Source: a virus | Taxonomy: Duplodnaviria > Caudoviricetes | Length of the DNA: 63,666 nt | Virus record (IMG/VR): IMGVR_UViG_3300021438_000015 | Coordinates: 1-63,666 of that record | Reading direction: 5' to 3' (one strand) | Shown here: positions 2,841 through 56,343 of the stretch, in pieces | How positions within the stretch are numbered: position 1 is the first letter of the stretch | How the letters are laid out: each line of letters opens with the position of its first letter | The notes under the pieces: model-generated | Database searches by the model: none | What the model was told of the DNA's origin: nothing | What the model saw: the letters and a program-made list of their open reading frames with translations, nothing else | Made by a program: the position numbers and the translations under genes

Positions 2841-3245
2841 TTAAAACAGGTGAGCGACACCCATACTGTACAAAAGATTACCGGTTACTGTACGCCTGCA
2901 CATGTCACTACGCTCTGCATAAAACTGGCGATACTCACCGTTTGACATTTTGCAAGTAACAAGCGTAGGGCTACGCTGAAACTCTTTATCATATCGGCGG
3001 TAATCACTAGACCAGTTCAGACGGTCAATCTCATCCTTAGTCAACTTATAAACATTCACAACCTTGGCAAGATACCTTTGATAATCACCAGTTACAGGTT
3101 GGAAGTATCGAAAGTTATATACAGTACCAACAGTAGCATTAGCAAGACTATCATGCACACCTCTGTATACATTGAAAAAGAAAAAGCAAACCAAAGCAAC
3201 GCAAGAAAGGGCAAGCAAACCGCCAAACAAAACGAGATCATTCAT
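2841..3245 (-). CDS. hypothetical protein with N-terminal membrane anchor
   Basis: 134 aa; hydrophobic LVLFGGLLALSCVALVCFFFF; RBS AGGAG. Confidence 0.8.
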   Translation of the reverse strand: MNDLVLFGGLLALSCVALVCFFFFNVYRGVHDSLANATVGTVYNFRYFQPVTGDYQRYLAKVVNVYKLTKDEIDRLNWSSDYRRYDKEFQRSPTLVTCKMSNGEYRQFYAERSDMCRRTVTGNLLYSMGVAHLF

Positions 3246-3271
3246 TTATCAACTCCTAGTGGGAAAAACTC

Positions 3272-3300
3272 ATTATACCTTGTCGATGAGGCTTTGTCAA
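3272..3300 (-). promoter_or_regulatory. sigma70-type promoter
   Basis: Perfect TTGACA-N17-TATAAT. Confidence 0.85.
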
Positions 3301-3560
3301 GCACTCAGCACATCATCTTCTACAATATCATCGGCATCTTCCGCGAAGCAACTTGAGTTTACTTCGTCAACGTCGATACCGCTATCATTCCACGCCACAT
3401 TGTCGGGCGTTTCATATGCAATCGCTCCACCTTCATTGTAAAGGTATTCTTGAAACTCAGCATAGTTAGAGCAACTACGAGAGAGATTATAAAGCCCCTC
3501 GTCGTTACTAATCCAGAGGCACACGTTCCACGTTTCGTAGTTAGCATAACCGTTATACAT
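3297..3560 (-). CDS. conserved phage hypothetical protein (YNG.NYETWNV.LW..ND type)
   Basis: N-terminal MYNGYANYETWNVCLWISNDEGLY pattern is recurrent in phage early proteins; acidic tail. Confidence 0.8.
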   Translation of the reverse strand: MYNGYANYETWNVCLWISNDEGLYNLSRSCSNYAEFQEYLYNEGGAIAYETPDNVAWNDSGIDVDEVNSSCFAEDADDIVEDDVLSA

Positions 3561-3763
3561 CAGAAATCATCTCCGTAGGTGTCACCAAAACAACCATAAC
3601 CCTCATCAACGTCCCAGCCGATAGAGTTCATCGCACTATCATGGTCGCCATCCATGCTATCATCATAGTAATCGTCCCGATAATCATTCGGGTCAACAGT
3701 ATCATCATGGTAGTCCATGTCATAGTCCTCGTAATCGTGGGTAGGATCGGGGCAACTCATCAT
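3560..3763 (-). CDS. extremely Asp-rich small protein
   Basis: 67 aa, about one third Asp; start/stop overlap with downstream gene; RBS AAGGAG. Confidence 0.75.
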   Translation of the reverse strand: MMSCPDPTHDYEDYDMDYHDDTVDPNDYRDDYYDDSMDGDHDSAMNSIGWDVDEGYGCFGDTYGDDF

Positions 3764-3770
3764 TCACTCC

Positions 3771-3947
3771 TTAGAAAGTATACTCTTCGGGAATCCACTC
3801 GTCAACATCAACGCCAACGATTTCCGCCCAATCGTAGAAATCGCACAGCACAGCCGGATCATCAACAGGCTCGACCATCGGCTCAACCGCTTCCTTCGCG
3901 GCAAGGTCAGCAAGAATCGCGTTGACTTCTTCAAAATCGTAGAGCAT
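3771..3947 (-). CDS. small acidic hypothetical protein
   Basis: MLYDFEEVNAIL...; RBS AGGAGG appropriately spaced from ATG 3947. Confidence 0.75.
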   Translation of the reverse strand: MLYDFEEVNAILADLAAKEAVEPMVEPVDDPAVLCDFYDWAEIVGVDVDEWIPEEYTF

Positions 3948-3972
3948 TTTCATTCCTCCTAGGTATGCCATC

Positions 3973-4000
3973 ATTCTACACTAGTTATCGGCAACGTCAA
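3973..4000 (-). promoter_or_regulatory. sigma70-type promoter with GCCGATA box
   Basis: TTGACG-N16-TAGAAT; shares TGTAGAATGATGGCATAC with promoter at 652-679. Confidence 0.75.
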
Positions 4001-4045
4001 GCCCCAATCTACAAATATTTTTCCTTAAAAAGATGAAAGGGTATT

Positions 4046-4105
4046 TGGCACAAAAATCGCGGCCCGCCCCATTCGCCCTAAACCCTTGTCAGATATAGAG
4101 TTACG
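4046..4105 (+). promoter_or_regulatory. sigma54-like box + GC core + 27-bp palindrome element
   Basis: TGGCACAAAAATCGC (4046-4060), GGCCCGCC, palindrome at 4078; same 32-bp offset as the element at 702. Confidence 0.6.
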
Positions 4106-4183
4106 TCAACTATTCACAATCCAAGCCGCTATACATCCGATCACGAAAGAAAGTGAAAGCACAATCGCGTCACCTGTACGCAT
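4106..4183 (-). CDS. 25-aa single-TM peptide
   Basis: MRTGDAIVLSLSFVIGCIAAWIVNS; AAGGA RBS; below ORF-track cutoff. Confidence 0.55.
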   Translation of the reverse strand: MRTGDAIVLSLSFVIGCIAAWIVNS

Positions 4184-4185
4184 AT

Positions 4186-4287
4186 TCAGTCCTTTTTTAT
4201 TGGAAAAACAAGATCAGAAACAAACCAACAACCAATAACGCCAACAACAAATCCCACACCGATTTGTACCCAGTTAATATCGACCAT
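4186..4287 (-). CDS. 33-aa single-TM peptide
   Basis: MVDINWVQIGVGFVVGVIGCWFVSDLVFPIKKD; AAAGGGG upstream. Confidence 0.6.
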   Translation of the reverse strand: MVDINWVQIGVGFVVGVIGCWFVSDLVFPIKKD

Positions 4288-4302
4288 CCTTGGCCCCTTT
4301 CT

Positions 4303-4602
4303 TTATGAAACTAAAATGTTATCTTCAAACGGAGTACCATCCTGCAAAAACCATTCGTAGTTTTTCTGGTACACACAAACCGGACTATACTTGTTAATAC
4401 GATCCTTAGTGGTGCTAGTTCGCCATCCGTTGGTGTTCAACTTATAAAGCCCGTTAGGATAAATAACAACCACCTTCGTACCATGCAGTTCAATAGCAAC
4501 ACTACCATCGTGCTGAATGTAAGCGTAGGTATTGTTGCCAACCTTACGCTGGCTTCGGTTACGCTTGCCCAAAACCATCTTAGTCGCTTCGGCGTGAGTC
4601 AT
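4303..4602 (-). CDS. conserved phage hypothetical protein
   Basis: 99 aa with LHGT..V...L.T.GW.T.TTK.RIN pattern typical of phage early proteins. Confidence 0.8.
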   Translation of the reverse strand: MTHAEATKMVLGKRNRSQRKVGNNTYAYIQHDGSVAIELHGTKVVVIYPNGLYKLNTNGWRTSTTKDRINKYSPVCVYQKNYEWFLQDGTPFEDNILVS

Positions 4603-4615
4603 CTTTTTTCCTTAG

Positions 4616-4831
4616 TTAGAGAGCCTTGATTTGATTCAGTATATCGGCCACACCAGCAAAGTCAAGCCATCCCACAACGTCACTAGTCACGGGAGTATCA
4701 TATACAATCTTGCCATCTTTCATAACGGCAACTTCAAAAAGCCCATCTTTTCCACCATAGGTCATAGCATTACTTACAACGCTAGCCTCGTAACCATTAT
4801 CAAACTTAAAAACTTTACGGTAATCGTTCAT
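4616..4831 (-). CDS. conserved phage hypothetical protein
   Basis: MNDYRKVFKFDNGYEASVV...YGGKDGLFEVAV...YDTPVTSDVVGWL; RBS GAGGA. Confidence 0.8.
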   Translation of the reverse strand: MNDYRKVFKFDNGYEASVVSNAMTYGGKDGLFEVAVMKDGKIVYDTPVTSDVVGWLDFAGVADILNQIKAL

Positions 4832-4854
4832 GATATCCTCTTTCTTATATCGAC

Positions 4855-4882
4855 ATTCTATCATCTAAACTTTAGTTGTCAA
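4855..4882 (-). promoter_or_regulatory. sigma70-type promoter
   Basis: TTGACA-N16-TAGAAT followed by GTCGATA; CTAAAGTT in spacer. Confidence 0.75.
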
Positions 4883-4996
4883 GCGTTTTTCGTGCTGACT
4901 ACGCTGGCTACCAAATGATCCGGCCAGTTTGGCCGAGACTTCCCAGTTTTCCCAGATCGCCCAAACCCCCCATTTTGCCTATCTTACCAAAACCCC

Positions 4997-5326
4997 CTAT
5001 TCGTCGTAAAACGCGGAGATTTCCTGTCCTGCCACAGCATACATTTCATACATACTACGCAAAGCCTCTACCCTCTCGCGGCTTCCCGGCTTACCTACCT
5101 TGTCAATCATGAGGTCGTTACCCCCCACAATGCGGGGATCGACGCTTTCCTTACGCACCTTACCAGCATTACGCAAAGCGGTACGGTTGAACTTGATTAC
5201 CTTTTCGCTTTTGATTGGCCCATATTGCCCATCCGCAAGGCTAGGTTGATGGGGAATAGCGATTCCCACAAAGCACATGCGAGCCTGTCGCTTGGCATCT
5301 TCGATGATTTGAAACTTTGTAGCCAT
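4997..5326 (-). CDS. hypothetical protein
   Basis: 109-aa ORF, RBS AAGGA, own promoter. Confidence 0.8.
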   Translation of the reverse strand: MATKFQIIEDAKRQARMCFVGIAIPHQPSLADGQYGPIKSEKVIKFNRTALRNAGKVRKESVDPRIVGGNDLMIDKVGKPGSRERVEALRSMYEMYAVAGQEISAFYDE

Positions 5327-5352
5327 TTTCTTTTCCTTAGTGGTGATGATGG

Positions 5353-5381
5353 ATTGTACGAAACTTTTTCTACGCTGTCAA
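5353..5381 (-). promoter_or_regulatory. sigma70-type promoter
   Basis: TTGACA-N17-TACAAT. Confidence 0.75.
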
Positions 5382-5575
5382 GAGAGGCTAAAACCTAGTT
5401 CAATCTCTAGAGACATCTTGCAAACTTTTTCGCGTAGAGCGTGAAGCCTAGCGGCCTCTTTCCTATACGCTTCCTTTTCTTCATCATTTATAATAGGAAG
5501 GATGGTATCCATAATCCGGTTTTCCCGGTGGATAATGGCAAGGTGGATATCTTTTAGTTCGTCAACGGTTAGCAT
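5378..5575 (-). CDS. hypothetical protein
   Basis: 65-aa helical ORF, RBS AAGGA. Confidence 0.75.
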   Translation of the reverse strand: MLTVDELKDIHLAIIHRENRIMDTILPIINDEEKEAYRKEAARLHALREKVCKMSLEIELGFSLS

Positions 5576-5607
5576 TTCTTTTCCTTTTCTCTTTCTTACT
5601 TATCGGT

Positions 5608-5635
5608 ATTCTAGCGACTCAACTTTAGAAGTCAA
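5608..5635 (-). promoter_or_regulatory. sigma70-type promoter
   Basis: TTGACT-N16-TAGAAT followed by ACCGATA; CTAAAGTT in spacer. Confidence 0.75.
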
Positions 5636-5781
5636 GCATTTTCTTTTTCGTTTTTCTCTTTTTCTTCTCTACGCTTTTGCTCATAGTAGGATTCCAGAGA
5701 CTTCAAAAACTCGTCAACGTATCCATCTTCATTATCACGACGGTAATCGTATCCATCGTCAGACTTATAAAACTTACCCAT
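5632..5781 (-). CDS. small charged hypothetical protein
   Basis: MGKFYKSDDGYD...; RBS AAAGGT. Confidence 0.6.
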   Translation of the reverse strand: MGKFYKSDDGYDYRRDNEDGYVDEFLKSLESYYEQKRREEKEKNEKENA

Positions 5782-5801
5782 TTTATTTACCTTTCCTATC
5801 C

Positions 5802-5969
5802 TCAAAAAGTTTCCAGAAGATCGAAATCTTCCCAACCACTAATCTCTACCGCATCGTATACGGTTCGACCAACCAGAAAAGCCGACCCAATCGGCACAAT
5901 CTCGAAAGTCTTTCCATTTTCACCATACAACCTAACCAACTCACTCTGGATATCTTCAATGTAAACCAT
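5802..5969 (-). CDS. small hypothetical protein downstream of sigma54-type promoter
   Basis: MVYIEDIQSELVRLYG...; purine-rich leader AAGAAAGAGAGAG. Confidence 0.6.
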   Translation of the reverse strand: MVYIEDIQSELVRLYGENGKTFEIVPIGSAFLVGRTVYDAVEISGWEDFDLLETF

Positions 5970-6003
5970 TTTCAACTCTCTCTTTCTTATGTCTATATAT
6001 AGA

Positions 6004-6018
6004 GCAATCGGTGTGCCA
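6004..6018 (-). promoter_or_regulatory. sigma54 (-24/-12) promoter
   Basis: TGGCACACCGATTGC, exact TGGCAC-N5-TTGC, 35 bp upstream of ATG 5969. Confidence 0.7.
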
Positions 6019-6090
6019 AACATAGATTATTTTTTTGTGCGTTTCGACCGGGAAAAACGCTATGACATTTTTTGTGCTTAGTTTTTGAGC

Positions 6091-6169
6091 GTAGCATTTT
6101 GCAACACCCTGTAGCATTTTGCGTTAGTGATTTCGGCCATGAAACTGAGGTAGTGTAGCATTTTGCAAC
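6091..6169. repeat. three GTAGCATTTTGC(AAC) repeats, enhancer (UAS)-like
   Basis: Copies at 6091, 6111 and 6155; imperfect palindrome GTAGCA-TTT-TGCAAC. Confidence 0.75.
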
Positions 6170-6221
6170 GGTCTACCTATCTTACCATGCCTCTTTTGTA
6201 GGCGTGCGATTTTTTATTCCA

Positions 6222-6357
6222 CGGCACGGATTTTGCGTTGATACTCGCTCTAAGTCCTTATGCCACAATGGTTTACGTCAAACGCGGCCCGCCGGATTCG
6301 CCCTAAGTCCTTATGTAGCAAGGGTTTAGGTTAAATCCTAGGGCAAACGGTGTGCCA
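6222..6357. promoter_or_regulatory. dyad-symmetric element: two convergent sigma54 boxes enclosing paired palindromes
   Basis: CGGCAC-N5-TTGC (+, 6222-6236), 13 bp, palindrome 6250-6276, GC core, palindrome 6303-6329, 13 bp, TGGCAC-N5-TTGC (-, 6343-6357). Confidence 0.75.
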
Positions 6358-6365
6358 TTCAGATT

Positions 6366-6380
6366 TGGCACGATATTTGC
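6366..6380 (+). promoter_or_regulatory. sigma54 (-24/-12) box, antisense to genes
   Basis: TGGCACGATATTTGC exact consensus. Confidence 0.6.
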
Positions 6381-6557
6381 TCACCCGAAATATTGCTCTT
6401 CCCAAAAGTCCTCATCATACCCCTCTTCCTCATCTTCCCAACCTTCCCCATCGTCAAGGCCAGCAATGTAATCTGCCTCGTCTTCCATTTCTTCCCAACC
6501 CCTATAGATTTCCTCTTCGTTGATTTCCGACATATCGTAGATGAAATCGTTGTTCAT
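6381..6557 (-). CDS. extremely Glu/Asp-rich small protein
   Basis: MNNDFIYDMSEINEEE...EDEEEGYDEDFWEEQYFG; AAAGGT RBS. Confidence 0.7.
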   Translation of the reverse strand: MNNDFIYDMSEINEEEIYRGWEEMEDEADYIAGLDDGEGWEDEEEGYDEDFWEEQYFG

Positions 6558-6580
6558 TTGTATACCTTTGGGTTTAGTGT

Positions 6581-6706
6581 TCAACCGTTCATGAACCGAA
6601 TAGCATCTTGGGAAGTCTTGAACGTTCCCATCAACCTACGCTTACCGTTTTCCATTTCGCGGTAAACCTTATACTTATTCCCGATCATGATCAGAACCAG
6701 ATTCAT
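6581..6706 (-). CDS. 41-aa basic hypothetical protein
   Basis: MNLVLIMIGNKYKVYREMENGKRRLMGTFKTSQDAIRFMNG; follows promoter and purine-rich leader. Confidence 0.65.
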   Translation of the reverse strand: MNLVLIMIGNKYKVYREMENGKRRLMGTFKTSQDAIRFMNG

Positions 6707-6730
6707 AACTTTCTCTCTTTCTTTCCCTGT

Positions 6731-6759
6731 ATTATACTTATCGGCTTTTATCGTGTCAA
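6731..6759 (-). promoter_or_regulatory. sigma70-type promoter with GCCGATA box
   Basis: Perfect TTGACA-N17-TATAAT with GCCGATAAG in spacer. Confidence 0.85.
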
Positions 6760-6778
6760 GCCCCTAGGAAATATTTTT

Positions 6779-7000
6779 TCAACGAATCGTAATCAGTCCG
6801 TTGAAGTGTGAGAAGGTAAGGGTAAGAGTCTGAGAAGGATACTTCTCGTTGATATACTTCTGTGCAGTACTCTTACGGTTATCCGTAGCAGCGACACACT
6901 GTACAACTGTACCATTCTTATCCGTAACCTTCCACACCTTTTTCTGTACGATACGGGGAAGGCTACCAATGAAATCGTTGATATGAGTTGTCTTTTCCAT
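6779..7000 (-). CDS. hypothetical protein (first gene of leftward region)
   Basis: 73-aa ORF after promoter and AG-rich leader. Confidence 0.75.
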   Translation of the reverse strand: MEKTTHINDFIGSLPRIVQKKVWKVTDKNGTVVQCVAATDNRKSTAQKYINEKYPSQTLTLTFSHFNGLITIR

Positions 7001-7030
7001 TTTCTTTCTCTCTTTCTTTCTTATGCTCTT

Positions 7031-7058
7031 ATTATACCATACTTATCGGCTATGTCAA
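7031..7058 (-). promoter_or_regulatory. sigma70-type promoter with GCCGATA box
   Basis: TTGACA-N16-TATAAT with GCCGATAAG. Confidence 0.85.
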
Positions 7059-7118
7059 GGGGCAATCTCAAATATTTTTAAATATAATCTTGTGCCAAAG
7101 CAAGAAATATTCTCTAGA

Positions 7119-7133
7119 GCAAATGCTGTGCCA
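7119..7133 (-). promoter_or_regulatory. sigma54 (-24/-12) box
   Basis: TGGCACAGCATTTGC exact consensus. Confidence 0.6.
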
Positions 7134-7182
7134 AATATATTATTCTCTTAAACAGAAGATCGACACGATCATATCATTAGTC

Positions 7183-7263
7183 GTAAGTCTATACCCTATA
7201 AGGGTTTACGTCAAAAATTTCGGGGCGTATGCGTCGTAAACCTATACCCCACAAGCACTTACG
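7183..7263. repeat. paired 27-bp palindromes
   Basis: GTAA-N4-AT-N7-AA-N4-TTAC at 7183 and 7236 (53 bp apart). Confidence 0.8.
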
Positions 7264-7466
7264 TTGACTAGATGGTTGACACGATCTACTCTTTAGTAAG
7301 ATGGGGGATATAGGGGGGTTTTATCTTATAAGTATTTTAGGCAATATACGTCGAAAAAGTCGAGGGTGGTCCATCCACAATTTAGAATGTATAAACATAT
7401 GTATTACCCGATCCACCCGCATCGCCCCTGCTTGAATCATTGAATCTGTTAATTTATCAATATGGT

Positions 7467-7476
7467 GTGTATAATA
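7467..7476 (+). promoter_or_regulatory. putative late promoter
   Basis: GTGTATAATA before first rightward gene; no -35 seen. Confidence 0.65.
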
Positions 7477-7494
7477 CCATATAGGAGACATTTT

Positions 7495-7668
7495 ATGAAA
7501 AAGAAACAAACAATTGAAACGCAATTGGATTGTCGCGCTACGGCATCTTTGCAGGAACAAATAAACTCTGATTTACTTCATGAGGATAAATTACTAGCCT
7601 CGTTACTTAGCGACAAAGATACCGTTATAAACGAGGAACAGGATGACGAAACCAAGTCAAGCGATTGA
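7495..7668 (+). CDS. hypothetical protein
   Basis: MKKKQTIETQ...; RBS AGGAG. Confidence 0.65.
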   Translation: MKKKQTIETQLDCRATASLQEQINSDLLHEDKLLASLLSDKDTVINEEQDDETKSSD

Positions 7669-8422
7669 ATTAGTAGCTAATGTAGATGATAGTAACGACC
7701 TACTATTATGCGGCATTGATGGTATACAACACGCTAACTACGATTATTCAGCGGCCCATTATTATGGAACTATAAGTTCTGATAATAGTGTTAGTAACGT
7801 ATTTGGTCTTGGTGAAAATAATAAATTCTTCTATATCTTGATGTCCTTTCGTGACAATCAAATAGTTAGATACGAAGCTGGTACTGGTTATGGGTATGAA
7901 AAAGATGGTAAGCACTACTTTAATAGATACTTACCAATGTATGAGGGCAAGAACCCCCAACATCAACAACTAGTTAAAAAAAATAAAGAAAAATATATTT
8001 GTCTTGATGATGCTGTTAATGTTTTAGTTTCATCTTTCCCCCCCGACTATTCATTAATGTTTTACGATAAGAATTGCGTCTTATCTTCTTTTGATAAATC
8101 GGTTCCCCATGCGATACAAGTACTTGAAAATTCTTTCTTAGCTCGCGTTGACGTTAACGATATTTCCAACGTGTCTTTCGATAGTAAGGTTTTTAGTGAT
8201 ATTATAGCTGAAGCTTTAACGAAGTACACTAAACAGCTATCGCTTAAAGCTTCAAAACTTAGCGTTGGCAAATTGTCTGCAAAGCATTTTCAATTAGAGC
8301 CATCTAGTGATCTTAACGTTAAAAAGGGTACTTTTATATACGATGAAACAACGGATACTGTTAAGTTTTATAACGGAGAAAAATGGAGAACGTTAAAGTG
8401 GGTAGACGAAGAATCGGAATGA
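7643..8422 (+). CDS. hypothetical protein, possibly virion-associated
   Basis: 259 aa; C-terminal KGTFIYDETTDTVKFYNGEKW resembles fibre-type beta motifs. Confidence 0.75.
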   Translation: MTKPSQAIELVANVDDSNDLLLCGIDGIQHANYDYSAAHYYGTISSDNSVSNVFGLGENNKFFYILMSFRDNQIVRYEAGTGYGYEKDGKHYFNRYLPMYEGKNPQHQQLVKKNKEKYICLDDAVNVLVSSFPPDYSLMFYDKNCVLSSFDKSVPHAIQVLENSFLARVDVNDISNVSFDSKVFSDIIAEALTKYTKQLSLKASKLSVGKLSAKHFQLEPSSDLNVKKGTFIYDETTDTVKFYNGEKWRTLKWVDEESE

Positions 8423-8907
8423 AAATACCTAAAAATATGACGGAAGCACAAGTTGTGGATCAGATTAACATTGTCGTTAATAGGATATCGGCCCGTTATA
8501 CTTTTCATGGTTACGAAGTTGATGATATAAAACAAGAAGCTTTTATAATTTGTATGGATGCTATGGATCGCTATGATCCAAGTCGCCCCTTGGAGAATTT
8601 CCTGTCTGTTCACTTATCTAATCGCCTTAAAAACTTTGTTCGTGATAACTTTTATACTAAAGATGAAGAAGAAAAAAAGAAAGTTTTAAAACCTAGTAGT
8701 TTATCTTATGAAGACTTTACTCCCAGTACAGAATACAACAATGATAATAAGATAGATGCTAAAAATCTACAAGAGATTGTTGATCGCAAGTTACCTTCAG
8801 AGTTCCGCGCAGATTATCTAAAAATAATTAATAATGTATACGTACCGAAAAAAAGAAGAGAAGAAATCATTGCGATAATCAAGGAGTTACTAGATGAAGA
8901 AGGGTAG
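8419..8907 (+). CDS. phage sigma-70-family (region 2) transcription factor, probable late sigma
   Basis: YEVDDIKQEAFIICMDAMDRYDPSRPLENFLSVHLSNRLKNFVRD matches the sigma region 2 pattern; short, with truncated region 4. Confidence 0.75.
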   Translation: MKIPKNMTEAQVVDQINIVVNRISARYTFHGYEVDDIKQEAFIICMDAMDRYDPSRPLENFLSVHLSNRLKNFVRDNFYTKDEEEKKKVLKPSSLSYEDFTPSTEYNNDNKIDAKNLQEIVDRKLPSEFRADYLKIINNVYVPKKRREEIIAIIKELLDEEG

Positions 8908-9679
8908 AATTTCTAAAGAAGAAGAACGCATAATTGGCAGATTGATCGACCATGTTACGGTAGAAGATATCGCCAAGCAACTTGACCGCGATGTTGAGTC
9001 TGTTGATAACTTTGTTAAGCGTAAATTCAAGGTCGGACTATCAAACGAAGAAGCCGCCGCTTATTCACTAGAAGATCGCCCTTATTGGATTGAACTAGAG
9101 AACCAGTTTACTCCTTCAGAACTAGATCTATTTAAGTATCATTGGTCCCGTATTATTTCTCAGTTTAAAGATGACGTTTTTCCAACAGAAGAACTACAGG
9201 TGGTAGACGTTATTAAACTAGAAATACTCATGAACCGCTGCTTAAAGAGCAACAAGGACAATCTTAATGAAATGACCGTTTTGGAGAAACTCCTTAATGA
9301 CGAACGGGCCGTTGATAAGGATCAGCGTGATCATGATTATGTTTTAAATCTAGAGCGTCAGTTAGCATCCCTTCGGGCTTCTCAAGAAGCTCTTAACCGG
9401 GATTACCGCGAGCTTCAAAGTAAAAAGGCCAGCATGTTGCGTGAAATGAAGGGAACTAGAGAGCAAAGAATCAAGCGACTTGAGGATAGTAAGCAAAGCT
9501 TTACCTCTTGGGTTGCTAATCTTATGCAAGACCCAGAAACGCTAAAACGATATGGGATTGAAATGGAAAAGATGAGACTAGCTATGCTTAAGGAGAAGGA
9601 GCGATTAAGTGCTTTTCATCAATATGAGGACGGTCAGATTGATCAACCGTTCTTAACGCCAGATACGGTGCTAGACTAA
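8894..9679 (+). CDS. HTH + coiled-coil protein, candidate terminase small subunit
   Basis: N-terminal VEDIAKQLDRDVESV HTH, long coiled coil, upstream of TerL. Confidence 0.45.
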   Translation: MKKGRISKEEERIIGRLIDHVTVEDIAKQLDRDVESVDNFVKRKFKVGLSNEEAAAYSLEDRPYWIELENQFTPSELDLFKYHWSRIISQFKDDVFPTEELQVVDVIKLEILMNRCLKSNKDNLNEMTVLEKLLNDERAVDKDQRDHDYVLNLERQLASLRASQEALNRDYRELQSKKASMLREMKGTREQRIKRLEDSKQSFTSWVANLMQDPETLKRYGIEMEKMRLAMLKEKERLSAFHQYEDGQIDQPFLTPDTVLD

Positions 9680-28252: not shown

Positions 28253-28723
28253 ATGGCCCTAAAAGCAGATAGATATGAAGTTCAAACTGATATCAGTTTC
28301 TTCTACAATGCCGGGATAGCAACTCGCGGCGGTGTAGTGGTTCATGATACTACAGCTGGTTCTGGTGCATCAATGGATCAAGGTGTTAACCTTGTGAAGT
28401 ATGCTGCTGCAACATCAGCAACTGTACCAGTTGGCGTGTTACTAAACGACGTAGTAAATAAGGATCTAACCCGCACTCATCTTAATCAATATAAGGATGA
28501 AGTTCAAAAGGGTGGTAAAGTTACAGTACTCCGCAAGGGTTATGTTGTAACAAACAGTATCACTGGCACACCTATTGCCGGTAGCGGTGCATATGCTTGC
28601 CATGTTAATGCTGGAAACATCCGCATGGATAGTCCAGCTAGTTCTGGTCAGCTATTGATCGGACGCTTCCTTACAAGTAAGGATGCTGACGGTTATGCAA
28701 AAGTCGAAGTGAACCTCCCCTGA
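28253..28723 (+). CDS. capsid cement/decoration protein
   Basis: 156 aa between scaffold and MCP; PVGVLLNDV, GRFLTSKDADGYAKVEVNLP. Confidence 0.7.
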   Translation: MALKADRYEVQTDISFFYNAGIATRGGVVVHDTTAGSGASMDQGVNLVKYAAATSATVPVGVLLNDVVNKDLTRTHLNQYKDEVQKGGKVTVLRKGYVVTNSITGTPIAGSGAYACHVNAGNIRMDSPASSGQLLIGRFLTSKDADGYAKVEVNLP

Positions 28724-49488: not shown

Positions 49489-52400
49489 ATGTCCAAATTC
49501 GTACTGACCGCACAATTACAGTTACAAGCTCCTAATAATGTTAAACAGGTTGTACAGCAAATCCAGAACCAGTTGCAAGGCGTTAACGTCAATATACAGG
49601 TTCAAGGTAGTCCACAAGCCCAAAAACAATTACAGCAAGTAACTCAACAGGCTAATCAAGCAACGTCAGCGGCGGAACGCATGGGCAAGGCTTTTGCTTT
49701 GTCCATTAGGCGTTTCGCTGCTTTTTCTATTGCTACAAGGGCGGTTGGTCTATTTACTAGCACATTAAATGATGCTGTACAGACTTCTATTGATTTTGAA
49801 AGACAATTAATTAAAGTTGCTCAAGTTACTGGTAAAAGTATTAGTCAACTTCGCGGACTAACTAAACAAATTACCAATTTATCTACCGGCTTTGGTGTAG
49901 CGTCTTCTGACTTATTAGAAGTTTCTACAGTGTTAGCACAAGCCGGTTTAAGTGCTGAAGATACTTCAGTTGCTTTAAAAACATTAGCAAAAGCCGCACT
50001 TGCTCCTAACTTTGATAGTATTAGTGAAACAGCAGAAGGTGCTATTGCTATTTTAGCACAATTCCAAGAGGGTGTTGGAGCTTTAGAAAAACAACTTGGT
50101 TCTATTAATGCCGTTGCTGGTGCATTTGCTGTTGAAGCTAGCGATTTAATCGATGTTGTTCGTAGAACAGGTGGTGTGTTCAAATCATCTGGTGGTAATT
50201 TAAATGAATTGCTTGCGTTATTTACCTCAGTAAGAGCAACAACGCGAGAAAGTGCTGAGAGTATTGGTACTGGTTTACGTACTATTTTCACTCGTATTCA
50301 GCGTCCTAAAACTATTGAATTCTTAAAACAATTTGGTGTTGAATTAGTTGATTTAAATGGTAAGTTCGTAGGTCCATATGAAGCTATTAAAAAGTTAAGT
50401 GAAGCCCTAAGTGGACTAGGTGAAGGCGATCTTACTTTTATTAGTATAGCTGAAGAACTTGGTGGATTCCGACAGATTGGTAAAGTTCTTCCGCTTTTAC
50501 AACAATTTTCTACCGCTCAATCCGCACTAAATGTTGCGATGAAAGCCGGTGACTCCTTAACTCAAGATGCTGCATCAGCACAGGCGGCACTTGCTATTAG
50601 AATAATGAAAGTTAAGGAAGAATTCTTAGCTTTAATTCGTAGTGTTACAGAAACATCTACTTTTCAAGTGATGGCCAATACTGCTCTTTCATTAGCATCA
50701 GCACTTATTAAGATTGGCGATGCTATTAAACCATTACTTCCAATGTTAGCCGCTTTAGCAGCTTTTAAATTAGTAAAGGGTATGGGAGGTTTTTTTGGTG
50801 GGATGATGAGCGGTGCTACTTCTGGTAGAACCTACAATAAAGGTGGTAAAGTTCTTGGTTTTGCTAGGGGCGGCTTAGTTCCCGGTACTGGTAATAGTGA
50901 CACTGTTCCAGCAATGCTATCCCCCGGCGAGTTTGTTATACGAAAGAGTAGTGTTAATAAGATGGGTGCTGATACTCTCGCGGCGATGAATAGTAATCGA
51001 TATGCATATGGCGGTAAGGCCAGAACATTTGGTATAGCAGCACTAGATGGAACACAAGATAGTAAATCTGCTAATATTCCCATTTCAGCTATACGCGAAA
51101 AACTTGGAATTAATACTGACAAAGCTGGTAACAAAAATCTTGATATGGTCATACGTGGGGTTTTGGGATCCAAGGGGTCTGACTTAAATGTTACAGCGAA
51201 ATCAGATACTGTAACATTAAATGATCCCGGCATCAAAGATGCTATATACAATAATATTAAAAGTCAAATGTATGGATTAATAACTAGTTCAGCTACAGCT
51301 TTAAGTAATGGGACTGGAATCCCTATGAGAAAGCGATCAATTAATCCTAATAAAGTTCTTGCTAAAGTTGGAACGGATTCTACTATTGGTAGCGTTTTTG
51401 AGGGGGCATTAGGATTATTGGGAGGACCATTCTCTGCTGGAAAATCTACTGCTGCTATTGATTATCCAAGAGGTCTTGGGAAAATGGCTTCCGCATTTTC
51501 ATCATTAGCTAATATGCCGGTAGATGCTAAAAAAACAGCAGACTCTAAAAAAATTAGTGAGATGTTAAATAAAAAAATTCCTAACTTTTTTGCAGAATTT
51601 ATTAAACGTTCTCCACAATATGCAAGTTTTAAAAGTCAACTAAACCAAGGTAAATTAGATAAGCTCAAGGGTAGAGAATTTGATTTAACGGAATATCAAA
51701 GAGTCACCGGAAACTCAAAAGCTACATTGTCTGATCTTAGCGGGATTGCTAGTCTTTCTCGCAAGTCTGGACAAAGACAACTTTTTAGACTTGCTGAAAA
51801 GTTTGCAGACGGCGGTGAAGTAGTACAGCAAGGAACTCAAAAATATTTAGCTTCTGATGTTGTTAAAGCAATGAGAGAATTGCAAAACAATCCATCTTTA
51901 AGCGAAAAGGATGCTATTGATTTATTTACTTCCCGAGGCGCAAATGGAGACTTTATATATACTAACTGGGGTGGAAAAGGTAGCATTAAACCACCTAAGT
52001 GGCTTGCACCATATAAACCTCCAGCATCTGCGGCTTATAGTGCTTGGGAACAGGCTCAAGCTGATCGCCAAAATCGTATAGCTGATGCTATGCAGAAACA
52101 AGGTAGGGCGATGCGTGATTATGAAGGTCAAACTTCTGATCAAAAAGAATTTTTAGCATCTAGAGGGCTTGGTTATAGACGTAAAAGGTATGCTACTGGA
52201 GGTGGAGTTGGTACAGATACCGTCCCCGCCCTTTTGACTCCCGGCGAGTTTGTCATTAATCGCGCATCTGCACAAAGAATTGGTTATAACAATCTTCATA
52301 GAATGAATAAAGTTGGTAAATATGCTACAGGTGGAGTTGTTCAGCGTTTTGCTTCTGGTGGAACACCTACCGCATCTTCCTTTCAATCTAACATAAGGTC

Positions 52401-55400
52401 TGCTGCTAATACTGGTGCTATAGAAAAAGATATTGCAGATCTTTCTAAAAGTATAAAAATAACTAAAACAAGAATAGATGCTTATAACCCAGCTATTCAA
52501 CACCATACTGACACAGTTGATAAATTATATAAAGATTCTGCTAAATTAGATATTCAATTAAGTAAATATAATACAGAACTAATTAGATTAGCTAATCAGC
52601 AAGGCAAAGCTACCGCAACTGGCACGGCAGCAAATAGAATTCTAGACCTAAAGATGAAGGCTGAGACAGAAGCTATTAGAGTAGAACAGCTAGCTTTACA
52701 AGAAGAACAAAAATTAACAAATATTAAAAAACAGCAAGAGCAACTTATACAACAACAAAATCAACAGTTAGCACAAAAAAGTCAATTAGCCGCCCAAGCA
52801 AAACAGCAAAAACAAGCTGCTACTAATGCTATAGGTTCTACCTTACAGGGCGGTACTCAGTCTAGCTTAGTTGATGTAAATGCTAAAGGTAAAGCAATAG
52901 TAAGACAAAATAGAAAAGATGCTGCCAGAAGTGCATCTTCGTTTGGGGGAGGCGGAAATCCCATTAAAGATATAGGTGGTGCTGCAATTGCAGTGTCAAT
53001 GGTTACAGCGTCTTTACAAGCTATGTTACCACCTCTTGATGAAAATTCATCTACGCTTACACAGTTATCACACTCTTTTCTTGGATTAATAACAACATTA
53101 TCTGGAGTAGCATTTGCTTTACAATCTTTTGGAGTCACGCTAAAAGCCCAATCAGCCATAAAATTTTTGAGTGGAGGCGGGTTAAGTGCTGACGGTATAC
53201 AGTCTGTGTTTAATGCAGTAAAAGGTATGGGTGGCAGCACAAACTTGGCTGGAAATATTGCTGGCGTTGCAAATAGTTTTGCTAAAATGCTTGGACCTAC
53301 AATTGCTATTGTCGGTGGTTTAACTATTTTAAAAATGGCTGTTGATAATGTATCAGAATATTTTAATAGATTTGAAGAAAAAAAACAAGCAGCAATTCAA
53401 AAGGGTGACATCGAAACAGCAGGAAAAGTGGCTGGATCCCAAGCAAGAAATGCCACATCTATAAGTGGAACATTTGCTGGTGGGGCTATTGGAACAATAA
53501 TTGGTGGAATTGCTGGCATGTTTGCTGGACCCGGTGGAGCAATCATAGGTGCAAAAATAGGCGCAAGCGTTGGATCACTTGTCGGAGCAATAACAGAAGA
53601 CTTTTTTGCTGGTGGATTAGTAGAAGAAGCATCAAACACAGCAATGGCTTTTGCTGCTAATAGTAAGGCTTCTAAAGATTTAGCAAAAGCTCAAAGCGAT
53701 GCAGCTTTAGCAGCAGAGAAATTTAAGAATGGAACTATTTCAGCGGATGAATATTTAAATACATTTTCACAATCTGCAAAATCTATTTCTGAGAGCAAAC
53801 AATATGCAGATAAAGTTACTAAGCAATCTACTGAAAACAGATCTACAGGATTTGGAGCTTTGGGTCGAGACATAGTAACTGGACTTGGTGGCGGACTTAT
53901 GGGAATGGAATGGTCTTCTACAAGAAATAAGCGTTTATCTCAAGAGGGAATCGATGTTGTAAAAACACAAAGGGAGAATGAAAGTAAGTTATTTGATTCA
54001 AGCACTGAAGCTAGAAATGCTGTTATTAGAAGCACTATAGCTAGAGGCGGATCAATTGAAGACGCTCAGAAAAAAGTAAAAGAAAAAACTGGATTCGATG
54101 CCGAAGATATGAGAAGGCGAGCTTCTACTCTTGGCTTCCAAGCAGAAAGAGCCAGACAGTCTGGTGATGCTAAATTAGCTGGTGAATTAGATACTCAATC
54201 TCAAGGATTATTTGCTCAAGCAAATCAATTAGAAGATTCATTTGAAAATTTAGAAAAAGAAGTAAGACGCGCTAAAGAATCATATGATGCTATGAATCTC
54301 GGCCTCCGTTCAGCTTCTGCTACCGCATCTGCATTATCGGCAAGTATGGATCATTTCTCTTCTGGTCTTGAGGTCGGCGGATCTCAATTTGTGAACGATG
54401 TTGAGTTCTTACAACAAGCTATGAGTAGTTCTGCTCAAGCTATGGATCCAGCAGAAATCAAGAGTGCAGTAAAGGGTGTATCTGATAATCTTAGACAGTT
54501 TGGATCTTCTGAAGAATACATAAAGAAATTTGAGGGAAATGTTGCTGCTTTTACTCAGGCTCAAGGTAATTATAACAAGGCTTTTGACAATATTAAAAAA
54601 TCAATGGCGGATAAGGACTTTAAGAATTTAAGTCCAGATGATCTTAAAAAGAAATTTGCTGAAGAATTGACTAATGGTATGGGTAAAGACGTTTCTGAAG
54701 AAGCCAAGAAAAATTTGAAAGCTGTTATTAATGGTATGGAATTAGACAGTGGCGATGTAGACAAGATCATGGCCGGTGATCTTAGTGTTTTTGGAGACAA
54801 ATTATCAGAAGCTCAAAAGAAAATGCTTGAAGATGTTCAGAAAATTGCTCAAGAACGAGCAAAAGCTGAACAAGTACTAATTGACTTTACTAAGAAAAGA
54901 ATTGATGCAGAAAGAAATTTAGTTCAAGCACAGCAAGAAGCTCTTGATCTTGTGATGGAAGGTCGAGAAATTCAAGGTAAATATGGTGGCGCAGCAGTAA
55001 CTAATGAAGAAAGAAAACAAAATCTTCTAGCTAAGTCTAACGTTGAAAGCAATAGGCTTGGTTTGACCGCTATGAGAACTGGCGATGTTGGAGACTTAAG
55101 AAGAAGAAATGCTGAATTGAAGGGAAATTTTGCGGCAATAGAAGCTAGAAGAAGTCAACAGGGTGGTATGCAAGGGCAAGCTGGAGTTATGGCAGATGAA
55201 GAATCTAAGGATTTACAGAAAGCCTACAAAACTCAAATTGAAACAATAAGGGGATTAATCAAGCTAGAAGAAGAACAATTAAAGATTACTCAAGAAAAGA
55301 ATAAACTTGAGAAAGAATCTATGGAATCTCTTATCAAGGGAGATGTAGAAGAATTCTTTAAGAAACAATCTGCCGCTGGTGCCACAGCCGCTATCGCTAG

Positions 55401-56343
55401 TGGTGATCAAAGATTAATGAATTTATATGGTGGAGAAGCTCTTGGTACAGCTTATCAAGATATTCAACGACAACAAGATGCTGGAGTTCAAACTTTATAT
55501 GGTCAACAGCTTGCTGGCCCCGGCGGTTTGACTGAAGCCGCTGCAAATGCAGCACTTTCTTCTAGAGGTATCAATGACATGAGAGCCGCACAAGTGATGG
55601 CCGGAACTACTCCAGAGGAAGAAGCTAGCAAGGCTAGACTAAGAGAACTTGGTGGGGTATTAGGAGATACTGGTCAACTTGGGGCAGAAATGGCAGAAAT
55701 GCAAGTGCAAACTGCTACTATAAATGTAAATAGCGCACAATTAAAATTTAGCGAAGTTATGAATAGAGGAAATGAAAAAGCCAAGGAAGCACAAAATATA
55801 GAAAATCAAAAAGCAAATGGTATGTCTAGGGGAGGTCCGGTATATGCAAGTCGTGGTATTTTTGTGCCTCGCGGAACTGATACTATTCCAGCCATGTTAA
55901 CCCCCGGTGAATTTGTAGTAAATAGGGCGGCTGTTCAAAGGGATAATAATTTAAGTATATTACAAGCGATGAATAATGGCTCTGGAAGTGTATCTAATGA
56001 TAGCGGCGCAGTATTAATGGCCCGTGGAGGCATGGTGAGATATAGAAGTGCTGGCAGTTCAAATCCAGAATCACCAGCATCTGGCGGTATGTTTGAAAAT
56101 ATGTCTAAGTTTGTTACAGCAATTTCTAATTTTAATTCAGATTTATCTTCTAATATTGACAAACTTGGAAATACTAAAATCAGTATTAAATTAGATTCAA
56201 CAAGTGTAAGCATCAACCTAAATGATGGCGGATTATTAAAGGCTCTTACATCTCAAGTTAAACAAGAAATATTTAATTTAGTAAAGACTAGATTAGTTGC
56301 TGGAGAAGGTGGAAGACTAAGGGAAAACGCTGGTGTAATATGA
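49489..56343 (+). CDS. tape measure protein (TP901-like core) with internal modules
   Basis: 2284 aa, Ala/Gln-rich helical; RESAESIGTGLRTIFTRI core; three DT(V/I)PAxL(S/T)PGEFV motifs. Confidence 0.92.
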   Translation: MSKFVLTAQLQLQAPNNVKQVVQQIQNQLQGVNVNIQVQGSPQAQKQLQQVTQQANQATSAAERMGKAFALSIRRFAAFSIATRAVGLFTSTLNDAVQTSIDFERQLIKVAQVTGKSISQLRGLTKQITNLSTGFGVASSDLLEVSTVLAQAGLSAEDTSVALKTLAKAALAPNFDSISETAEGAIAILAQFQEGVGALEKQLGSINAVAGAFAVEASDLIDVVRRTGGVFKSSGGNLNELLALFTSVRATTRESAESIGTGLRTIFTRIQRPKTIEFLKQFGVELVDLNGKFVGPYEAIKKLSEALSGLGEGDLTFISIAEELGGFRQIGKVLPLLQQFSTAQSALNVAMKAGDSLTQDAASAQAALAIRIMKVKEEFLALIRSVTETSTFQVMANTALSLASALIKIGDAIKPLLPMLAALAAFKLVKGMGGFFGGMMSGATSGRTYNKGGKVLGFARGGLVPGTGNSDTVPAMLSPGEFVIRKSSVNKMGADTLAAMNSNRYAYGGKARTFGIAALDGTQDSKSANIPISAIREKLGINTDKAGNKNLDMVIRGVLGSKGSDLNVTAKSDTVTLNDPGIKDAIYNNIKSQMYGLITSSATALSNGTGIPMRKRSINPNKVLAKVGTDSTIGSVFEGALGLLGGPFSAGKSTAAIDYPRGLGKMASAFSSLANMPVDAKKTADSKKISEMLNKKIPNFFAEFIKRSPQYASFKSQLNQGKLDKLKGREFDLTEYQRVTGNSKATLSDLSGIASLSRKSGQRQLFRLAEKFADGGEVVQQGTQKYLASDVVKAMRELQNNPSLSEKDAIDLFTSRGANGDFIYTNWGGKGSIKPPKWLAPYKPPASAAYSAWEQAQADRQNRIADAMQKQGRAMRDYEGQTSDQKEFLASRGLGYRRKRYATGGGVGTDTVPALLTPGEFVINRASAQRIGYNNLHRMNKVGKYATGGVVQRFASGGTPTASSFQSNIRSAANTGAIEKDIADLSKSIKITKTRIDAYNPAIQHHTDTVDKLYKDSAKLDIQLSKYNTELIRLANQQGKATATGTAANRILDLKMKAETEAIRVEQLALQEEQKLTNIKKQQEQLIQQQNQQLAQKSQLAAQAKQQKQAATNAIGSTLQGGTQSSLVDVNAKGKAIVRQNRKDAARSASSFGGGGNPIKDIGGAAIAVSMVTASLQAMLPPLDENSSTLTQLSHSFLGLITTLSGVAFALQSFGVTLKAQSAIKFLSGGGLSADGIQSVFNAVKGMGGSTNLAGNIAGVANSFAKMLGPTIAIVGGLTILKMAVDNVSEYFNRFEEKKQAAIQKGDIETAGKVAGSQARNATSISGTFAGGAIGTIIGGIAGMFAGPGGAIIGAKIGASVGSLVGAITEDFFAGGLVEEASNTAMAFAANSKASKDLAKAQSDAALAAEKFKNGTISADEYLNTFSQSAKSISESKQYADKVTKQSTENRSTGFGALGRDIVTGLGGGLMGMEWSSTRNKRLSQEGIDVVKTQRENESKLFDSSTEARNAVIRSTIARGGSIEDAQKKVKEKTGFDAEDMRRRASTLGFQAERARQSGDAKLAGELDTQSQGLFAQANQLEDSFENLEKEVRRAKESYDAMNLGLRSASATASALSASMDHFSSGLEVGGSQFVNDVEFLQQAMSSSAQAMDPAEIKSAVKGVSDNLRQFGSSEEYIKKFEGNVAAFTQAQGNYNKAFDNIKKSMADKDFKNLSPDDLKKKFAEELTNGMGKDVSEEAKKNLKAVINGMELDSGDVDKIMAGDLSVFGDKLSEAQKKMLEDVQKIAQERAKAEQVLIDFTKKRIDAERNLVQAQQEALDLVMEGREIQGKYGGAAVTNEERKQNLLAKSNVESNRLGLTAMRTGDVGDLRRRNAELKGNFAAIEARRSQQGGMQGQAGVMADEESKDLQKAYKTQIETIRGLIKLEEEQLKITQEKNKLEKESMESLIKGDVEEFFKKQSAAGATAAIASGDQRLMNLYGGEALGTAYQDIQRQQDAGVQTLYGQQLAGPGGLTEAAANAALSSRGINDMRAAQVMAGTTPEEEASKARLRELGGVLGDTGQLGAEMAEMQVQTATINVNSAQLKFSEVMNRGNEKAKEAQNIENQKANGMSRGGPVYASRGIFVPRGTDTIPAMLTPGEFVVNRAAVQRDNNLSILQAMNNGSGSVSNDSGAVLMARGGMVRYRSAGSSNPESPASGGMFENMSKFVTAISNFNSDLSSNIDKLGNTKISIKLDSTSVSINLNDGGLLKALTSQVKQEIFNLVKTRLVAGEGGRLRENAGVI

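Follow-up and report, generated by a model that had tools for sequence, protein, structure and literature searches.

Among enhancer-dependent sigma-54 promoters, glnAp2 of enteric bacteria carries tandem NtrC sites, of the TGCACC-N5-GGTGCA type, at about -110 and -140, and is activated by a phosphorylated response regulator. The usual geometry of sigma-54 promoters places the C of the GC element at -12, and their extended consensus has Y on the 5' side of TGGCAC and R on its 3' side, with T and W likewise flanking TTGC. For transcription, lytic phages are known to rely on the sigma-70 polymerase of the host, on polymerases of their own or on sigma-like factors that they encode, and the promoter-early stem-loop (PeSL) cassettes of T4-type phages reportedly carry sigma-70 early promoters. 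Here we describe a predicted sigma-54 promoter with an upstream enhancer, at positions 5969-6216 of a 63,666-bp stretch of phage DNA (IMG/VR record IMGVR_UViG_3300021438_000015; this whole stretch is called the window below), which stands before two small open reading frames (ORFs), referred to as its cargo.

Two further systems bear on this locus. Work on Vibrio qrr promoters gives the LuxO site consensus as TTGCAWWWTGCAA, found twice in the -175 to -60 region of Pqrr1 (PMC10162802). The core of the phage sites, TTGCAAAATGCTA, matches this consensus at 12 of 13 positions. In T4 late transcription, gp55 and gp33 are reported to act together with gp45, the sliding clamp, which serves as a mobile enhancer (PMC2988020). 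A search of the open-access literature and preprints found no description of an enhancer-dependent sigma-54 promoter in a lytic phage. What is new here is the setting, namely a predicted promoter of a known kind that forms a portable cassette among the early genes of a large family of uncultured freshwater phages.

Results

The promoter box and its enhancer

The initial annotation had reported an exact TGGCAC-N5-TTGC on the minus strand at 6004-6018, just before the ribosome-binding site of the 5802-5969 operon, together with three imperfect palindromes about 100-170 bp upstream of the predicted start, two of them 20 bp apart. The box, here called P1, was recovered as described, and both the coordinates and the distances of the palindromes were borne out. 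P1 ends 35 nt upstream of ATG 5969, and its GG and GC dinucleotides are exactly ten bases apart. Site centres in the following list were computed with the C of GC as -12 and a start near 5992.

6004-6018, minus strand: sigma-54-type -24/-12 box P1, TGGCACACCGATTGC, with TT before and T after it
5992, minus strand: predicted start of transcription, placed by sigma-54 geometry at 12 nt beyond the C of the GC element
6091-6105: predicted proximal activator site, GTTGCAAAATGCTAC, exact; centre at about -106, 72 nt upstream of the box
6111-6125: predicted middle site, AACGCAAAATGCTAC, half-degenerate with 3 mismatches; centre at about -126, 92 nt upstream of the box and 20 bp from the proximal site
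6155-6169: predicted distal activator site, GTTGCAAAATGCTAC, exact; centre at about -170, 136 nt upstream of the box and 64 bp from the proximal site
6019-6090, minus strand: spacer of 72 nt, rich in A and T tracts, conserved in aligned modules
5970-5991, minus strand: conserved leader CATAAGAAAGAGAGAGTTGAAA with a purine-rich ribosome-binding region (CATAAGAAAGAGAGAG)
5802-5969, minus strand: first cargo ORF, 55 amino acids, ATG at 5969, no known family
5632-5781, minus strand: second cargo ORF, 49 amino acids, with a 'DDGYDY...DGYVD' motif and a charged tail
6186-6216, plus strand: hairpin (6186-6206) and T run at the upstream border of the cassette, terminator-like on the plus strand only
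6222-6236, plus strand: divergent second box P2, CGGCACGGATTTTGC, with one mismatch (CGGCAC)
6343-6357, minus strand: exact box
6366-6380, plus strand: exact box
7119-7133, minus strand: exact box
28564-28578, plus strand: exact box

Including P1, the window holds 5 exact copies of TGGCAC-N5-TTGC against 0.08 expected, a number reached in none of 100 shuffles, and 12 against 2.03 expected when up to one mismatch is allowed; three of the four other exact boxes lie within about 1.1 kb of P1. The two halves of the motif belong together at one distance only. When the window and 83 related loci were pooled and unique contexts counted, TTGC followed TGGCAC at a gap of 5 in 84 of 369 contexts and at most three times at every other gap from 0 to 13. 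TGGCAT gave the same gap-5 peak (36/592), and none was found in these pooled loci for the control hexamers TGCCAC, GTGCCA, TGGAAC, CGGCAC and TGGCAA. The logo of 89 unique sites reads tTTGGCAC[A/G][G/C]n[A/G]TTTGC[T], with T before the core in 67, A or G after it in all 89, T before TTGC in 63 and T or A after TTGC in 70, a pattern that fits the extended sigma-54 consensus. No conserved -10-like hexamer appears downstream of the box in this logo.

The upstream sites are arranged as expected of an enhancer, for which palindromic sites in tandem on one helix face, some 80-150 bp upstream of the start, would be looked for; their geometry is kept in relatives. Their spacings of 20 and 64 bp correspond to about 2 and 6 helix turns. 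The distance from the proximal site to the box is 72-73 nt in every P1-type module, and the 64-bp spacing of the outer sites is seen in the window and 13 loci, which include overlapping stretches of the same contigs. GTWGCA-N3-TGCWAC is present in 25 of the 84 sequences, and at least one loose upstream site lies within 220 nt of 31 of the 127 unique box sites with full context; the phage half-sites often read GTAGCA instead of TTGCA. The spacer, whose A/T tracts and length are conserved, shows no clear IHF consensus as judged by eye, and may be a bend or an IHF-type site. In relatives P2 is an exact TGGCAC box beyond the sites, facing the opposite way at 66-70 and 130-134 nt from the outer sites; there, one enhancer would also serve the divergent box, which is degenerate in this window.

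On the minus strand P1 is followed by TCTATATATAGA, then by the leader and by ATG 5969, which aligns with the cargo start codon in most of 12 modules, one module having a longer leader. A similar leader is found behind a consensus sigma-70 promoter at 7058-7031. The 49-residue 'DDGYDY' ORF is the commonest cargo, its homologues being first or second after the cassette in relatives, and neither cargo ORF has a PHROG match. Two other candidate elements were rejected. The AT-rich CTCTATATATAG after the box, considered as a phage-specific promoter motif, occurs at chance level (16 matches against 11.97 expected), and a small RNA from the divergent box or from the 6343-6357 box would fold no better than shuffles (z of -1.25 and -0.52); an Rfam search returned tRNAs only.

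Sigma-70 promoters nearby

The statement of the initial annotation that the operon has no sigma-70 promoter of its own is nearly right: a scan for consensus promoters yields a single match there, of 9 of 12. That match, TAGACA-N16-GAAAAT (5995-5968), has its second hexamer overlapping the start codon; the alternative, TTGGCA-N16-TATAGA, lacks the final T, and a sigma-70 reading of the box fails in several cassettes. The neighbouring early genes appear to differ from the cargo in having consensus sigma-70 promoters. Nine near-consensus examples, TTGAC[ATG]-N16/17-TA[TGC]A[AC]T with 10-12 of 12 matches, stand before small leftward ORFs on the minus strand between 3270 and 7060, so the host is predicted to read classical -35/-10 promoters.

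A portable unit in relatives

Relatives share a conserved unit of about 220 bp, made of a hairpin, three sites, an A/T-tract spacer, the box, a purine-rich leader and an ATG. In full, the order is the hairpin; the distal, middle and proximal sites; the spacer GCTCAA...CACAAAAAATGTCATAGCGTTTTTCCCG...CACAAAAAAATAATCTATG; TTGGCAC-N5-TTGC; TCTATATATAG; CATAAGAAAGAGAGAG; and the ATG. In the viral collection, 38 stretches carry the strict module. A first set of modules was chosen by the motif pattern (23 instances, 12 of them unique), which fixes the motif bases by construction; an independent anchor, CATA[GT]CGTTTT, lies inside the spacer and belongs to neither motif. Searching with this anchor gave 17 unique contexts, namely 16 cassettes and one unrelated coding match. 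All 16 cassettes have TGGCAC and TGC at constant spacing (as TTGC in 12, GTGC in 3 and ATGC in 1) and GCAAAATGC cores at all three site positions, and in the four most divergent ones the distance from anchor to box is still 35 nt despite differing sequence.

Across the 12 unique modules N5 takes five forms, and the coding sequences after the ATG are mutually unrelated from module to module. Three contigs bear two copies of the cassette, each before a different small ORF, and an ORF start with the conserved leader lies within 60 nt of P1 in all 12 aligned modules. The hairpin arms vary among relatives yet still appear pairable, by eye and uncounted. Since motifs and spacing are kept while N5 and the downstream gene differ, comparison of the sequences identifies 5969-6216 as a self-contained, portable, predicted promoter cassette with changing cargo.

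Bacterial counterparts of the enhancer

A scan of 185,579 bacterial species genomes for the box with GTWGCA-N3-TGCWAC lying 60-85 nt upstream of it returned at least 120 stretches, with 121 matches listed, against a chance expectation, roughly estimated, of a few tens of matches. The perfect palindrome GTTGCA-N3-TGCAAC makes up 103 of the 121 matches listed, though four W combinations were allowed, and among these listed matches the gaps between box and site peak at 62-67 and 73. Homologous small gene families recur downstream in Desulfobulbales, Aquificota, sulfur-oxidising Gammaproteobacteria and Syntrophorhabdus-like genomes, and modules are also seen in Nitrospirota. An ORF with an activator signature is present in 59 of the 120 listed loci; in 28 of the 120 such an ORF lies on the promoter strand and stops 0-300 nt before the site. 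All eight adjoining ORFs tested are REC-AAA+-HTH proteins, with AtoC, NtrC, ZraR and LuxO as best models, all scoring below the equivalog cut-offs.

One bacterial class, of eight loci, carries GTTGCAAAATGCAAC at 72-73 nt from the box in every case, as in the phage, with a weaker second site 20 bp on in seven loci and 31 bp on in the eighth; the tandem spacing in bacterial enhancers of this class is 20-21 bp. GTTGCA-N3-TGCAAC is hence a widely used enhancer class beside NtrC-family regulators in several phyla, and may help to assign the regulons of orphan activators. The small genes behind this palindrome and the box include a 114-residue 'MEMRQND...' gene in Desulfobulbales, genes of 113-122 residues in Aquificota, a gene of about 185 residues with 'LSALAYQDA' in sulfur-oxidising Gammaproteobacteria, and a 'MRTRLPNTVHDWE' protein of about 170 residues adjoining a 453-residue regulator. 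These small-gene loci may be undescribed regulons of one regulator class.

Source of sigma-54 and activator

The initial annotation had noted that no bacterial enhancer-binding protein is encoded in the window, and had suggested looking for such genes, and for rpoN, in the rest of the genome. Its statement on the window stands: PF00158 (Sigma54_activat) is without a match there. The wider search was made in relatives, two of which, G001 (166,604 bp) and G002 (161,058 bp), are complete genomes with terminal repeats, and it found neither. PF00158 has no match in five large relatives, these two included, and none in the two complete genomes even at E<=10; PF04552 (the sigma-54 DNA-binding domain) has none in the same five, and PF02954 (HTH_8) none in the window or in the two complete genomes. 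As neither factor is encoded in these relatives, nor an activator in the window, sigma-54 and activator would both be required from the host.

Other boxes and repeat elements

The exact boxes at 6343-6357 (minus) and 6366-6380 (plus) are 8 bp apart, and their TGGCAC halves form a 7-bp hairpin that is terminator-like on the plus strand; comparable pairs of boxes on opposite strands, a few bases apart, are seen in several related loci. The box at 7119-7133, TGGCACAGCATTTGC, precedes by about 60 nt the consensus sigma-70 promoter of the first leftward gene (7058-7031). G001 and a further genome, G003, have an identical 15-mer, and G002 a TGGCAT variant; no GTWGCA-type site is present within 220 nt upstream of the box. 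Two pairs of a conserved element of 32-38 nt (TAAGTC...GGTTTACGTC) lie at 6245-6335 and 7178-7265, with copies 53 nt apart, and the first pair stands between the convergent boxes 6222-6236 (plus) and 6343-6357 (minus). The box at 28564-28578 falls within the gene of a virion protein, 174 nt ahead of the start of the putative major head gene; it has no clustered counterpart in G001, G002 and G003, nor one in the matching gene of G002, and is probably a chance occurrence.

The genome and its family

The source record is linear, with 35.7% G+C and an estimated completeness of about 40%. Small leftward ORFs start from about 7000, a divergent control region spans 7000-7640, and rightward genes begin at 7643; the latter include a Sigma70_r2-like protein, the large terminase, head proteins and two giant ORFs. 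The Sigma70_r2-like protein (8383-8907, 174 amino acids) matches Sigma70 region 2 only (Pfam E 4.2e-07; PHROG sigma factor families) and may be a late-gene sigma-like factor. The giant ORFs follow one another at 49489-63665 (2284 and more than 2442 amino acids), and G002 has five ORFs of 1138-2176 amino acids between 52.6 and 80.4 kb. Six tRNA genes (Asp, Glu, Asn, Gln, Thr and Lys) lie on the minus strand at 775-2080.

The protein encoded at 8894-9679 has copies at 72-97% identity in at least 153 viral contigs, G001 and G002 among them. No cultured relative was found by tblastn with a conserved neighbour protein, megablast of 4000-9000 against the phage collection gave zero matches, and the large terminase is merely 23-30% identical to those of Microcystis, Bacillus and Clostridium phages. 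Each of the 24 listed sequencing runs that contain the stretch is a DNA run, and an RNA run covering 3000-9000 was sought and none found; the five runs that contain at least one third of the sampled words are labelled freshwater, aquatic or pond metagenomes, and the first of these may be the source sample.

G002 encodes, among others, a class I ribonucleotide reductase, a DnaE-type polymerase, ThyX, PhoH, RecA, DnaB, a primase, GMP reductase/IMPDH and an rIIA-like protein. Its ribonucleotide reductase alpha subunit is about 54% identical to cyanomyophage versions and to one from a pelagiphage, the rIIA-like protein shares 33% identity with proteins from phages of Proteus and Pseudomonas, and an Atlas search with the GDP-mannose dehydratase gave mostly viral clusters; none of these names a host. 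A Shine-Dalgarno core precedes 71 of 157 crude ORF starts against a background of 7%, and this frequency, together with the consensus TTGACA/TATAAT promoters, would speak weakly against a Bacteroidota host.

Discussion

We consider it probable, with moderate confidence, that host sigma-54 polymerase and a host activator of the NtrC/LuxO type transcribe the two small ORFs. Every sequence-level test that we ran fits the enhancer-dependent sigma-54 promoter which the initial annotation had proposed. Among the boxes P1 would be the strongest candidate for a genuine promoter: it is correctly oriented, stands in fixed register with leader and ATG, and has a complete predicted enhancer. Host RNA polymerase carrying sigma-54 would dock at 6004-6018 and wait there as a closed complex. 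A host response-regulator activator of the NtrC/LuxO type would bind the three GTWGCA-N3-TGCWAC sites, contact the polymerase by looping of the A/T-tract spacer and drive promoter opening with ATP, and transcription would then run from near 5992 through both ORFs. As the phage appears to encode neither sigma-54 nor the activator, the cargo would be gated by a host two-component signal, and is probably on only when the host signalling protein is active.

Several observations weigh against this reading. The strict module was present in 0 of 400 other genomes sampled from a Burkholderiales order and in 1 of 60 from a Desulfobulbales order (controls, 0); it is rare per genome and points to no host. 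All three sites have the same orientation, GCAAAATGCTAC, and their invariant core is asymmetric, and so they are possibly direct repeats for another protein. Further exact boxes in the family are oriented away from genes or adjoin one another back to back, as do 6343-6357 (minus) and 6366-6380 (plus). In complete or near-complete relatives TGGCAY-N5-TTGC sites crowd, in both orientations, into 2.4-3.7 kb (8 of 9, 10 of 12 and 6 of 7 sites), and the reversed pattern used as a control for this clustering gave 0; a plain promoter role leaves the crowding unexplained, and the motif could be read by something else. Finally, consensus sigma-70 promoters lie upstream of the cassette at 6759-6731 and 7058-7031 with no predicted minus-strand terminator between 6731 and 5969, and read-through from them could express the cargo ORFs.

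The away-facing boxes, the back-to-back pairs and the nearby 38-nt elements keep two of the alternatives alive. The box and the GCAAAATGCTAC repeats might be read by DNA-binding proteins of the phage, or by its own sigma-like factor (8383-8907), their likeness to a sigma-54 promoter being convergent. The phage does encode this Sigma70_r2-like protein and many unassigned small early proteins, its boxes lie in either orientation close to other conserved repeats, and the shared orientation of the three sites would suit such a reader. We nevertheless think this unlikely, since it needs two independent coincidences, an exact GG-N10-GC box with the extended consensus and an enhancer that agrees in sequence, tandem spacing and distance with bacterial sites beside NtrC-family genes, and since the AT-rich sequence behind the box does not recur as a motif of the phage. 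Alternatively, the cassette could park, sequester or block host sigma-54 polymerase, and perhaps the activator, instead of serving to transcribe the cargo, for example in order to weaken a stress response that the host runs through sigma-54, or to keep neighbouring early units insulated. Stable closed complexes of sigma-54 holoenzyme form even when no activator is present, many of the family's boxes are directed away from genes or paired back to back 8 bp apart, and the boxes cluster in a few kilobases of genomes of 150-167 kb. For P1, however, such a docking or decoy role is distinctly unlikely: it faces an ORF start at short distance behind a conserved leader in all aligned modules, its enhancer is complete and at a promoter-typical distance, and a decoy would not need a fixed register with the ribosome-binding site.

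That ordinary sigma-70 polymerase transcribes the cargo, by read-through or from TTGGCA-N16-TATAGA, and that the sigma-54 box has no role, strikes us as very improbable. TTGGCA is a 5/6 match to the -35 consensus, the absence of a predicted terminator would permit read-through, and the cargo leader resembles leaders behind sigma-70 promoters. The -10 candidates, however, have no final T and disappear from several cassettes, whereas TGGCAC and TGC are invariant; the true sigma-70 promoters of this phage score higher, and a sigma-70 reading leaves the conserved spacing of TTGC and the enhancer unexplained. It is more improbable still that the three repeats act as iterons, in a replication origin or a partition site whose A/T tracts unwind, and that the box is incidental. 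Same-orientation repeats spaced 20 and 44 bp do adjoin A/T tracts in a gene-poor control region; against this, some genomes have two whole cassettes, each before a different small ORF, the repeats are in fixed register with box and ATG, and the same palindrome serves sigma-54 promoters in bacteria.

Beyond the sigma-54 reading of P1 itself, one may ask whether this phage family eavesdrops on a LuxO/NtrC-type phosphorelay of its host, using the portable cassette to make some of its earliest genes conditional on a host signal. We offer this only as a tentative and rather doubtful proposal. If it is true, the phage would tune its infection programme to cell density or nutrient state without encoding a sensor. 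The cassette itself is short, can move between cargo genes and is widespread among contigs of freshwater phages. If it works as read here, it would be a simple way to place chosen early genes under a two-component signal of the host, and would offer a testable example of a phage that senses the physiology of its host by way of a host activator.

Several described systems share parts of this design. Like PeSL cassettes, the unit is a short, portable combination of stem-loop and promoter between small early ORFs, reshuffled among cargo; unlike them, it has a sigma-54 box and an enhancer, with merely poor sigma-70 matches at P1. T4 late transcription is likewise reported to involve a distant activator needed by a polymerase that is unable to open the promoter alone (PMC2988020). 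T4, however, has genes for both a sigma-like factor and an activator and relies on a -10-type element, whereas the present phage has a host-type -24/-12 box with palindromes, and no phage-encoded factor for it was found by our searches of the window and relatives.

The bacterial NtrC-family modules come closer in having the same class of palindrome, tandem spacing, the 72-73 nt distance (in one class) and a short driven ORF. They differ from the phage unit in that an activator gene, absent from the phage, lies directly upstream in 28 of the 120 listed bacterial loci, and in that the phage has three sites, which in relatives would serve a divergent second box as well. With the Vibrio qrr promoters (PMC10162802) the cassette shares a -24/-12 promoter, tandem palindromes about 60-175 bp upstream and a small downstream product. 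It differs in lying in the genome of a phage of virulent type, where no luxO-like gene stands in cis, in having two small ORFs as cargo and not a small RNA, and in coming from a freshwater metagenome in which nothing indicates Vibrio. Like glnAp2, it is, as predicted from sequence, an enhancer-dependent sigma-54 promoter with tandem activator sites; the site sequence differs, and glnAp2 belongs to a chromosomal nitrogen regulon whereas the phage unit is a mobile cassette. In summary, save for a cognate AAA+ activator gene, in cis or in the same genome, and with a bend or IHF-type site in the spacer only putative, the sequence-level features of such a promoter are present, and at this level the cassette resembles an enhancer-dependent promoter of the glnAp2 and qrr type.

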